Sequence record: NC_014792.1
Reading direction: 5' to 3' (one strand)
Source of the DNA: Escherichia phage vB_EcoM_VR7
DNA length: 64,000 nt
In this document: in pieces, positions 2,531 to 64,000 of the stretch
Layout of the letters: each line of letters opens with the position of its first letter
How positions within the stretch are numbered: position 1 is the first letter of the stretch
The notes under the pieces: generated by a model
The model's database searches: none
Seen by the model: only the letters and a program-made list of their open reading frames with translations
What the model was told of the DNA's origin: nothing
Translations under genes and position numbers: made by a program

Positions 2531-3814
<1,284 letters not shown>

Positions 3815-61504: not shown

Positions 61505-62098
61505 TCAGCTTGTAAACCGGTGATAGGGAAATTTTTCTTCTGAACAAGAACGGAGGTACCAACCATCCCCTTGTGACTTCTGCACAAGTCCAGACTCAGG
61601 AACGAAAGCACCAGGTCCAGCAAGGAATTTTGGTTTAAATCTATAACCTTTGATAGTCTCTTTTACATTAAACATAATCATAAGGTCAGCAAGCTTGTGC
61701 TGCATAAAGGGTCCAAGATTAACTCCGTAACCATGTGGATAATCGCCCTGGTGACCAGTATGCACGGATATCCATTTGGAGCCAGATTGGTGAGTCTTAA
61801 CTTCGATTCTTACCCCTTCCTGGGAGACTACATCGAATGCAAAAGAGAATGGGTTATTGTAATCTTCATCGCCGCCACATAAGAAACCGGAGGTCCATTT
61901 GGCAATAGCTTGTTCGGCCATTGTAGCTACCATACATCTTTGCATGACTTGCTCATGGTCCTGGGCTGGGTCTTTACGCAATGAATACCTGGCAGTGTCT
62001 ACAATCTTTTGCAGGGATTCGGGGGTTAAGTCTTCCTTTGTATAAAGAAAGGAGGGCATCTTTTTCAGATGCTCCCATGTTTTACTCTTCTGAATCAT
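61505..62098 (-). CDS. putative PD-(D/E)xK-like nuclease; positional candidate for denB
   Basis: About 197 aa from MIQKSK with GAGG RBS; D...E.K pattern (FAFDVVSQEGVRIEVKT); near rIIB as T4 denB is. Confidence 0.4.
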   Translation of the reverse strand: MIQKSKTWEHLKKMPSFLYTKEDLTPESLQKIVDTARYSLRKDPAQDHEQVMQRCMVATMAEQAIAKWTSGFLCGGDEDYNNPFSFAFDVVSQEGVRIEVKTHQSGSKWISVHTGHQGDYPHGYGVNLGPFMQHKLADLMIMFNVKETIKGYRFKPKFLAGPGAFVPESGLVQKSQGDGWYLRSCSEEKFPYHRFTS

Positions 62099-62351
62099 CT
62101 TGAACCTCATCGATACCGACGATTCCTCGGATATGAAGCTCGCCATAGTACAAACGGTCATTAGCATCAAATGTATCGGAATCCGGGTCAGGGAATTCCC
62201 CAACAACTACTTCATCACATTCCAACCAGCCATAGTGAACATCACCTTCATGCTTGATGAGCTTACCACAGTAAACTGTTCCTGCATAATGATGACCCCG
62301 GAGATTTGAAACTTTGATGTCACGGTCTGACACATTGAAATGCTTAATCAT
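62082..62351 (-). CDS. hypothetical acidic protein
   Basis: 89 aa ORF. Confidence 0.4.
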   Translation of the reverse strand: MIKHFNVSDRDIKVSNLRGHHYAGTVYCGKLIKHEGDVHYGWLECDEVVVGEFPDPDSDTFDANDRLYYGELHIRGIVGIDEVQDDSEE

Positions 62352-62354
62352 AAT

Positions 62355-62564
62355 TTATTCACCAAAATAAGAAATACGGATTGCCAGTACATGAGCGTAA
62401 GCGCTCATTGCATCTAACTGGGCATTCAAAAGACCTTGCTGACGATTATCGAGAGTTTCAAAAACACCACCTTTAATAAACTCTTCAAGAGCATTGATTT
62501 TCAGGACCAGTTGGTCATATTCTTCAACTACACGTGCTTGGAAACCTAACATTTCTTTAGACAT
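62355..62564 (-). CDS. hypothetical protein
   Basis: 69 aa ORF. Confidence 0.4.
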   Translation of the reverse strand: MSKEMLGFQARVVEEYDQLVLKINALEEFIKGGVFETLDNRQQGLLNAQLDAMSAYAHVLAIRISYFGE

Positions 62565-63048
62565 TGTGTTCTTCCATATATTTTAATCGAGCTTCATTTG
62601 CTTCTTCTGGAGTTGCAAAAGCTCCGACTTGAGTTTGTTTTTTATTTCGCATAATAGTGGCTCGCCATGGTTTATTCAAAGCTCGTTTATCAAACGAGAC
62701 TCCTTTAAATCCAGACTTGTTGTTATTATACGGGCGCTTATTTAAAGCATTCTCACCTGGACTAACCCATCTGCAGTTATCGGGAGAGTACCCTTTATCG
62801 TTATCTGTTCGGTCAAGTTGATGTTTGTCAGTGGGTCGTGACCCCATATCTGTATAAAATCTTTCAAAATCATGCAGCCATTCATCGCAAACAGTGATAC
62901 CCCGCCCGCCATATCGAGAATAACTAATATGTGTTGGATTGCAACACCGAGCTTTCATGCCAATCCATACAATGTATTCAGGCGTGTGACCTAGCCCGTG
63001 GACAATACCACGAGCCGAGCCATCTTTAGCAATTGTTTGTTTAATCAT
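62557..63048 (-). CDS. HNH endonuclease with C-terminal AP2-type DNA-binding domain (homing endonuclease-like)
   Basis: 163 aa; HNH core (DRTDNDKGYSPDNCRWVSPGEN) then AP2-like segment (SGFKGVSFDKRALNKPWRATIMRNKKQTQVGAFATPEEA). Confidence 0.7.
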   Translation of the reverse strand: MIKQTIAKDGSARGIVHGLGHTPEYIVWIGMKARCCNPTHISYSRYGGRGITVCDEWLHDFERFYTDMGSRPTDKHQLDRTDNDKGYSPDNCRWVSPGENALNKRPYNNNKSGFKGVSFDKRALNKPWRATIMRNKKQTQVGAFATPEEANEARLKYMEEHNV

Positions 63049-64000
63049 TGAAACGTTCGGTCACATCTTCAAGAACCAGGTAACCACAAACCCTCATCTT
63101 ACTATCGGAATAATCCACCGGGATACTTACAACATCACGTGGGTGAACTTTACAGGATACGATACGGCCATCACCATGACCAAAACCGCTTCCGATATAA
63201 CCTTTAGAGCAAACATGCAGTCCAGTTGAACAGGTCTGTTCGTCATTGTCATTCACACGAGAGCGCGGCATTTTAACATATTGACCAGGGCTGTTGTCAA
63301 ATGTATTTGAGTGACAATCTTTGTAGGTTGAACGAACCATTTTCCAGGCGATGAAATGACCGTCTTCAGTGATTTCGATATCGTTCGCAACCAGGAAGTC
63401 AAACAAACGCTGTACTGCTTTCTCGCTTGGGTTCTCAAGGAGATTCTCAAGGAACGGCAGATAGAATTCAAAATCTTCGCCATTTTGCATTGAATTGATG
63501 ATACGAGTAACCAGACCGGAGCGCAGTTCAATTCCCTGATAGAACAGACTACCGCCTTCAATACGCACATCGCCTTTCACATATTTTTGCACCGCAGCTT
63601 TGATAGAGATAAACTCGATAGCATCATCAAAACGAGATTCTTTGAGTGCCTGGATAATAGCATCAAAGTGTTTATGGTCTTTTGTTGCGTTCCAGACTGT
63701 ACGACCTTCGGTGATGGAAACGAATTTGCTTGATGCGTTCCATACGATTTCCGGTCGGCTTCCACCAATTGTATCAGTAACTGGGACCACTTGAGGTTCA
63801 TTAGGAACCGTTACTGTAATATTTCCGGTAATAACTACTTCAGAAGGCTTAAATTCTTTATCATTTTTCAAAACGCGACGAATGGTATCAACTGAAATAT
63901 TGTACCAGTCAGCTAGTTCCTGCTGTGTATAGTTACCTGAAGCATACAGAGAAACAATTTGTTTTTGTTCGTATTCAGAGACGCATTTAATATTGTACAT
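63041..64000 (-). CDS. rIIB: rIIB lysis inhibition protein
   Basis: 319 aa; strong match to T4 rIIB (MYNIKC...YTQQELADW...DTIRRVLKN...ENLLENPS.KAV.RLFDFLVANDIEITEDG); start codon is the last three bases of the window, so the promoter is outside. Confidence 0.9.
   Translation of the reverse strand: MYNIKCVSEYEQKQIVSLYASGNYTQQELADWYNISVDTIRRVLKNDKEFKPSEVVITGNITVTVPNEPQVVPVTDTIGGSRPEIVWNASSKFVSITEGRTVWNATKDHKHFDAIIQALKESRFDDAIEFISIKAAVQKYVKGDVRIEGGSLFYQGIELRSGLVTRIINSMQNGEDFEFYLPFLENLLENPSEKAVQRLFDFLVANDIEITEDGHFIAWKMVRSTYKDCHSNTFDNSPGQYVKMPRSRVNDNDEQTCSTGLHVCSKGYIGSGFGHGDGRIVSCKVHPRDVVSIPVDYSDSKMRVCGYLVLEDVTERFND

Follow-up and report, generated by a model that had tools for sequence, protein, structure and literature searches.

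The present analysis concerns a small open reading frame (ORF) of Escherichia phage vB_EcoM_VR7 (NC_014792.1), located in a stretch of 64,000 nucleotides (nt) that is referred to below as the window. The source DNA belongs to the genus Gaprivervirus (Straboviridae, Tevenvirinae), and its nearest relative in the region is Escherichia phage vB_EcoM_VR25, with 98% identity. According to the ORF check of the window, the ORF lies on the minus strand, begins with ATG, occupies exactly positions 62557-63048 and encodes 163 amino acids (aa). The original prediction had placed an HNH-AP2 endonuclease gene directly downstream of rIIB at this position; the placement is borne out, and the start codon overlaps the stop codon of rIIB. 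The gene is real, intact, selectively constrained and mobile, and it occupies a previously unreported site. On balance, it is probably a free-standing, site-specific mobile endonuclease gene of the intronless homing type, established at the rIIB stop and equipped with an atypical, PacI-like active site. Free-standing homing endonuclease genes are routine in T4-like phages and the existence of this one is unsurprising. What it brings into view is a large and inconsistently annotated protein family without the histidine that defines HNH enzymes and with the Asp/Arg/Tyr/Asn constellation of PacI instead. The gene, its parts and its two junctions are as follows.

62557-63048, minus strand: free-standing endonuclease-type gene with nuclease and AP2 domains, 163 aa (ORF; PHROG 374, 1.1e-58)
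62725-63000, minus strand: N-terminal nuclease domain, residues ~17-108, with helical W..M..RC and YGGRGI..C..W elements followed by a beta-beta-alpha unit
62737-62820, minus strand: beta-beta-alpha-metal core, residues 77-104, QLDRTDNDKGYSPDNCRWVSPGENALNK (strands and helix of the model; BLASTP and hhalign to PacI; hhalign to I-HmuI)
62566-62715, minus strand: C-terminal AP2-type DNA-binding domain, residues ~112-161
63041-63048, minus strand: ATGATTAA overlap, the start codon of the gene lying within the last codons and stop of rIIB; left insertion junction (sequence and alignments)
62557-62564, minus strand: ATGTCTAA overlap, the stop codon of the gene lying on the new upstream start of a DenB.1-like ORF; right junction (alignments)
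63049-63111, minus strand: end tract of rIIB, ~60 nt, near-uniform in genomes carrying the gene and unlike that of genomes without it (alignment)

Domain architecture and active site

The protein is matched by PHROG 374, a family named 'HNH endonuclease'. None of the Pfam and NCBIfam HNH models recognized the nuclease domain at E<=1, and HNH_3 was touched by a single homologue out of 40 (0.0054). The AlphaFold (AF2) model, with a mean predicted local distance difference test score (pLDDT) of 84.8, contains a beta-beta-alpha unit made of strands 77-80 and 92-95 and helix 97-104, which is the fold expected of a His-Me finger. At the C-terminus, the single sequence reaches 19.5 bits against the Pfam AP2 model (cut-off 33.3) over residues 112-155. 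The same model is matched by 26 of the 40 homologues, with a best value of 2.1e-8, the family profile matches the solved AP2 structures of WRI1 (1.6e-7), TEM1 (5.2e-5) and ERF096 (2e-3), and residues 117-161 of the model form three strands and a helix in an AP2-like arrangement. The AP2 call is secure because of these homologue matches, profile matches and model fold taken together. Searches of the PDB returned just spurious weak matches, to NEDD4 and SusG, when queried with the single sequence, and AP2 structures with no nuclease when queried with the family profile. The label 'HNH-AP2' thus stood in its second half; of the first half, the PHROG 374 match and the beta-beta-alpha unit could be upheld, and the Pfam and NCBIfam HNH models and the catalytic histidine could not.

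The databases hold more than 6,600 homologues, with tblastn matches in 854 phage records, and 182 structures in BFVD are related at E<=0.001 under inconsistent names, some of them 'DNA-binding domain protein'. Residue conservation was counted in 121 aligned family members. R80, Y87, N91, W94 and N103 are present in 121/121 each, position 79 is Asp or Glu in 119 and position 100 is Asn or Gln in 120; C35, C54 and C92 are the only cysteines conserved by the family. H76, the sole nearby histidine, is found in 82 members and replaced by L, Y, A or T in the remaining 39. The domain was also aligned by hhalign, as a profile, with I-HmuI, the HNH_3 homing and nicking endonuclease of phage SPO1 (reference sequence 100% identical to PDB 1u3e). 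The beta-beta-alpha cores align, sharing an NLRWVT/NCRWVS strand, and R80 falls on the catalytic H75, D79 on D74, N91 on N87 and N100 on N96; the pairwise similarity of the two sequences is insignificant (E 15). The position of the general-base histidine at the end of strand beta1 is therefore Arg throughout, which departs from the canonical HNH active site, and the Asp preceding that position, the Asn of the helix and the structural Asn of strand beta2 are all present by alignment. The metal is putatively held by D79 and N100/N103, and Y87 is predicted to lie in the omega loop. Judging from the conservation counts and the I-HmuI alignment, the family appears to have kept its metal ligands without the general-base histidine.

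An active enzyme of this description exists. PacI is a His-Me finger nuclease without histidine that uses a tyrosine of its omega loop instead, and its single metal is bound by one Asp and one Asn (PMC5714182; Pingoud et al. 2014, PMC4081073; the two reviews from which its mechanism is taken here). It forms group 20 in the His-Me finger classification of Jablonska et al. 2017 (PMC5714182). With a PacI reference sequence 100% identical to PDB 3ldy, BLASTP pairs residues 78-128 of the phage protein with PacI residues 91-136 (E 2e-4); the aligned cores read LDRTDNDKGYSPDNCRW..N in the phage protein and VDRSDSFEGYSPQNARL..N in PacI. Alignment by hhalign recovers the same 22 columns, with PacI alone (E 0.003) as well as with a nine-member PacI family (E 0.001, probability 21%). 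Both methods give the residue pairs D79/D92, R80/R93, Y87/Y100, N91/N104 and N100/N113, and the five PacI residues are invariant in the nine-member family. By alignment, the protein thus shows the PacI-type arrangement, in which histidine is missing and a conserved omega-loop tyrosine stands between beta1 and beta2. We infer that the nuclease domain works like PacI, with Y87 taking part in catalysis. The domain is not filed as a member of the PacI family, and common descent over its whole length is not established, because the two Cys4 zinc sites are absent (neither C63/C66/C109/C112 of PacI nor its N-terminal CxxC pairs have counterparts) and significant similarity is confined to the active-site stretch. 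PacI (PDB 3ldy/3m7k) further differs in having no AP2 domain and in being a homodimeric restriction enzyme for TTAATTAA, not a mobile gene of phages. Nothing in the literature searched connected PacI-type nucleases with AP2.

Putative homing endonuclease genes termed 'HNH-AP2' have been listed in phages RB49, JSE, RB43 and RB16 (Petrov et al. 2010, Table 5; PMC2993671). Assignment of the gene to this class was considered and rejected, as the three RB16 genes that were translated (p054, p056 and p064) are all of the DH type: their N-terminal half is I-HmuI-like and carries Asp-His (…VVDHKHG, …TIDHIDL and …LIDHKNG), and their likeness to the window protein is confined to the part that runs from strand beta2 over helix and linker to AP2 (BLASTP 2e-11 to 3e-9). 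The 'HNN-AP2' genes of Xanthomonas phages Xp10, OP1 and Xop411 belong to the Asp/His type as well (PMC2248197). Classical HNH-AP2 (or HNN-AP2) proteins combine an I-HmuI/HNH_3 N-terminal half (HRLxW ... DH), catalytic histidine included, with AP2, whereas the window protein has a helical W..M..RC / YGGRGI region followed by DR...Y. Since the RB16 and Xanthomonas genes are of the Asp/His type and yet share the C-terminal part, a single AP2 module is joined to two different nuclease front ends, the window gene carrying the less familiar one. The two kinds have in common a free-standing organization with the nuclease preceding AP2, insertion between genes in T4-like phages and others, and a selfish lifestyle with degenerating copies (PMC2248197; PMC2993671). 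I-HmuI has the same layout, with a monomeric nuclease linked to a DNA-binding module distinct from it.

Occupied and empty sites

The junctions were aligned in 5 carriers and 9 non-carriers, the latter being VR25, VR26 and 7 other sampled Gapriverviruses. Where the gene is missing, a spacer of ~35 nt replaces its 492 nt. This empty-site spacer is nearly invariant (rIIB…GTAACTGAACAATTC-TAA-ATTAATCGGGGCTTCGGCCCCTAATGAGGCTTT-ATG) and holds a C(UUCG)G hairpin of ~-12 kcal/mol; in VR25 it corresponds to positions 3055-3089 of the extracted locus L001. Carriers other than VR7 amount to 4 of the ~28 distinct Gaprivervirus genomes in the phage collection (MN01, TH54, DCP80 and 212). The copies of MN01, TH54 and DCP80 are 100% identical (0/490 nt differ) and that of the window differs at 4 nt. 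The outer flanks of carriers are 92-95% identical to one another, no closer than those of a carrier and a non-carrier, and the nearest relative by flanks is always a non-carrier: VR25 for the window, VR26 or EAWsc9 for MN01, VR20 for TH54 and SP18 for DCP80 and 212. The last 54 nt of rIIB follow another pattern, with 97.4% identity within carriers versus 80.3% from carrier to non-carrier, and they contain fixed differences between the two groups (TCC vs AAT/AAC/GGG; GTGACCGAACGT vs GTAACTGAACAA). This tract may represent a co-converted flank, changes conferring immunity, or both. On the downstream side, carriers already diverge from each other within 33 nt.

With the frame of the 212 copy repaired, the alleles of phages 212 and MN01 differ by 17 synonymous and 3 non-synonymous codons. 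The resulting ratio of non-synonymous to synonymous substitution rates (dN/dS) of ~0.05 points to purifying selection on the protein and, together with the more than 6,600 homologues, establishes that the ORF is not a chance one. In Escherichia phage 212 itself (positions 1501-1994 of locus L005), a 2-nt insertion in the invariant GGRG codons puts the sequence out of frame from about codon 50, and the annotation of this genome retains a C-terminal ORF of 106 aa only; this copy is either decaying or affected by a sequencing error.

The same slot is used in a second genus. Morganella phage MP1 (Gualtarvirus) encodes a homologue of 69% identity, again with its start overlapping the stop of rIIB, and its relatives Rgz1 and two Providencia phages are without it. 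The empty site of Rgz1 (positions 818-873 of locus L015) reads rIIB…TTT-TAA-TTAATGGGCTTCGGCCCATTTTTT and contains the same A/T stretch and UUCG hairpin, in the form TAATTAAT-GGGCTTCGGCCC. A literal PacI site, TTAATTAA, is found there across the stop codon, probably by coincidence in AT-rich DNA, and the Rgz1 hairpin is followed by a T-run, which makes it terminator-like.

The gene behaves as a mobile element. That it encodes a homing endonuclease, as had been proposed, is well supported by population evidence, namely the precise indel, the identical gene on divergent flanks, the short uniform tract, the frameshifted copy and the slot occupied in a second genus. Its distribution recalls that of the T4 Seg and Mob genes, which are likewise reported to sit between conserved genes, to occur sporadically among close relatives, to co-convert short flanks and to depend on recombination during mixed infection (PMC2330249; PMC2790892; PMC2993671). 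The enzymes differ: Seg proteins are GIY-YIG and Mob proteins are histidine-containing HNH nucleases, none with AP2. No Seg, Mob or other endonuclease gene was found reported at the 3' end of rIIB in the literature.

The original prediction had also described the T4 rIIB-denB interval as deletion-prone and suggested that an endonuclease in this place could drive its plasticity. The description is broadly right, as T4 can do without region D, from rIIB to gene 52, in which deletions have arisen independently many times in the laboratory (PMC12115623). The suggested role found no support in the comparison of the genomes. T4 itself has no such gene in region D, where the laboratory deletions arose, and the footprint of the gene consists of the 492-nt indel, at most ~60 nt upstream and less than 33 nt downstream. 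Other polymorphisms of the interval occur also among genomes without the gene. The stretch between the DenB.1-like ORF and denB is taken up by one of two genes. The window, VR25, SP18, UPEC01, CJ20 and every carrier have a DUF7418 gene of 270 nt there, and VR26, VR20, RZ, EAWsc9 and YenP8 have a YopX-like gene of 321 nt that is unrelated to it. The YopX-like form is seen in loci L003, L006, L012, L013 and L014, all from non-carriers, in which no endonuclease gene lies beside the swap. An influence of the endonuclease gene on this swap was considered and discarded: the DUF7418 form is present in 5/5 carriers and 4/9 non-carriers, a distribution with a chance probability of ~0.06 by hand calculation, and no link is established.

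Proposed homing and its alternatives

A homing cycle can be proposed from these elements. The N-terminal beta-beta-alpha-metal nuclease, with R80 in place of the general-base histidine and Y87 placed as in PacI, would hold its metal through Asp79 and Asn100/Asn103, and the C-terminal AP2 domain would provide sequence recognition by binding a conserved element at the rIIB stop, for which the GC-rich duplex encoding the hairpin is an attractive candidate. In a mixed infection, the protein would cut or nick the empty allele. The likely target lies at or near the conserved element formed by the rIIB stop, TAAATTAAT and the GGGGCTTCGGCCCC hairpin, and cleavage would be expected within ~50 nt of TAAATTAATCGGGGCTTCGGCCCC, on the empty allele only. 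Recombinational repair from the genome of the carrier would then copy in the gene along with no more than ~60 nt from the 3' end of rIIB. Once occupied, the allele should be immune, because the spacer is lost and the 3' codons of rIIB are altered (GTGACCGAACGT for GTAACTGAACAA, TCC for AAT/AAC/GGG).

Several points weigh against this interpretation. The sequence link to PacI extends over 22-51 columns with a low hhalign probability of 11-21%, and the two Cys4 zinc sites of PacI have no counterpart. Position 100 is Gln in 51/121 homologues, which makes the identity of the second metal ligand uncertain. The literature search found no characterized member of the family and no cleavage assay for any of them. 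Neither a promoter nor a regulatory hairpin of its own was found for the gene. Finally, the intense recombination of T4-like phages could spread a useful accessory gene that does no DNA cutting of its own.

In a different explanation, the protein is a nuclease-dead DNA-binding protein, a domesticated His-Me finger attached to AP2 and serving for instance as a regulator of transcription or replication, which spread by homologous recombination because it is beneficial. The canonical catalytic histidine is indeed missing family-wide, inactive binders of DNA or substrate are known among other His-Me fingers without histidine, for example Smad MH1 and the Enpp nuclease-like domain (PMC5714182), AP2 is a classic transcription-factor domain and some of the database names read 'DNA-binding domain protein'. 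However, the inactive groups lack both the histidine and the tyrosine, whereas the present family keeps the omega-loop Tyr and the Asp/Asn ligands as PacI does. The distribution is of the selfish type (sporadic occurrence, identity of copies whose flanks diverge, a copy with a frameshift and one site in two genera), and the insertion takes away a conserved spacer and does not bring in a regulated cassette. We regard a nuclease-dead protein as unlikely. The opposite reading, that H76, in HQLDR, is the general base of a canonical HNH enzyme, draws on the presence of this residue, four positions before R80, in 82/121 homologues as well as the window protein, and on the PHROG name 'HNH endonuclease'. 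It meets a residue replaced by L, Y, A or T in 39/121 members while R80 and Y87 are invariant, an I-HmuI alignment in which H75 faces R80 and not H76, and a domain that escapes the Pfam and NCBIfam HNH models, all of which leave it very improbable.

The protein could also be an active nuclease whose main role is other than its own homing, such as the exclusion of co-infecting related phages (marker exclusion) or some processing activity. Exclusion of markers from related phages is reported for T4 SegB (PMC2330249) and trans-homing for MobE (PMC2790892), and the gene sits in an early-gene block near the nuclease gene denB. Exclusion and homing would nevertheless be outcomes of one and the same cleavage, which makes this proposal a variant of the homing explanation more than a rival to it. 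Occupation of one conserved slot in two genera, together with the short flank that is uniform among carriers, suggests cutting at or near the site of the gene itself, and no defence-system model matched. A principal function of this kind seems to us quite improbable.

A mobile endonuclease with a PacI-like active site, which we favour, opens onto a broader and far more speculative idea. The thousands of phage proteins entered as 'HNH endonuclease' or 'AP2 domain protein' and sharing W..M..RC, YGGRGI and DR...Y...NCRW...N might conceivably form a large, unrecognized, tyrosine-dependent and PacI-like branch of His-Me finger nucleases, maybe with a Tyr nucleophile or a covalent intermediate in place of water activated by His, and PacI, an orphan restriction enzyme, would be a domesticated relative of this lineage of phage homing nucleases; AP2 would recognize the UUCG-hairpin DNA after rIIB, and the cut would fall in the adjacent A/T stretch of the TAATTAAT type. 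We consider this conjecture possible and rather doubtful. Should the presence of the PacI constellation in the family be confirmed, the name 'HNH endonuclease' would misdescribe its mechanism, and PacI would have a plausible origin in evolution. The locus provides an unusually clean natural experiment in the form of the 98%-identical VR25 with its empty site and of a naturally frameshifted allele, and the candidate target, ~50 nt long and nearly invariant, recurs in a second genus. Activity, target and tyrosine dependence are directly testable because of this empty site, this recurrent target and this frameshifted allele.

Expression and neighbouring genes

No T4 late promoter TATAAATA was found within 8 kb of the gene, sigma-70-like and terminator-like matches were near background with none convincingly placed, and the surroundings of the start codon showed no significant RNA structure (z = 1.1). 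With no promoter found for the gene itself, the hairpin lost and both neighbours overlapped by the reading frame, expression probably depends on transcription of rIIB and on translational coupling. Over the whole window, TATAAATA occurs 11 times versus 4.7 expected, a number that no shuffle reached (for example at 1820, 6616, 10262, 18960 and 53897). The window contains no paralogue of the gene and no other obvious HNH or GIY-YIG gene, and no PADLOC defence system was matched. The neighbouring genes are the following.

63041-64000, minus strand: rIIB, 319 aa, upstream neighbour (PHROG 609 'RIIB lysis inhibitor', 1.3e-103; synteny with rIIB of VR25)
62355-62564, minus strand: DenB.1-like ORF, 69 aa, first downstream (Pfam crAss001_48, 1.4e-19; VR25 gp152 is annotated 'similar to T4 DenB.1')
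62082-62351, minus strand: DUF7418 ORF, 89 aa, second downstream (Pfam DUF7418, 1.7e-33)
61505-62098, minus strand: denB (endonuclease IV), 197 aa, ATG at 62098, third downstream (PHROG 1360, 1.1e-79)

Three small ORFs had been announced between the endonuclease gene and denB. There are two, at 62355-62564 and 62082-62351, in agreement with the annotation of VR25, MN01 and DCP80. The mechanical ORF of denB, 61505-62206, begins at an upstream TTG (233 aa), and the PHROG 1360 match starts at its residue 37. By homology and from the annotation of relatives, the real start is the ATG at 62098, giving a gene of 594 nt as in VR25 that overlaps the DUF7418 ORF by 17 nt.

Both immediate neighbours differ between the two forms of the locus. 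The rIIB gene of the carrying allele is 2 codons longer (..ERFND* vs ..EQF*), and in genomes without the endonuclease gene the DenB.1-like ORF begins 4 codons later, at ATGTTAGG. The insertion has shifted the DenB.1-like start 4 codons upstream and taken away its GAGG ribosome-binding site. Pfam family PF21825 (crAss001_48-related), into which the DenB.1-like protein of 69 aa falls, is shared with crAss-like phages. In rIIB, residues 8-46 give weak, sub-threshold helix-turn-helix matches (HTH_28 5.7e-5, HTH_7 1.1e-4 and Sigma70_r4 4.5e-4).

Annotation of the region is uneven. In MN01 and DCP80, the endonuclease gene and rIIB are both entered as 'hypothetical protein'. In Yersinia phage vB_YenM_P8, tiny ORFs of region D are labelled 'naphthalene 1,2-dioxygenase' and the DenB.1 homologue is labelled 'endonuclease', probably through annotation errors; the ORFs concerned lie at 380-496, 1-166 and 2396-2593 of locus L006.

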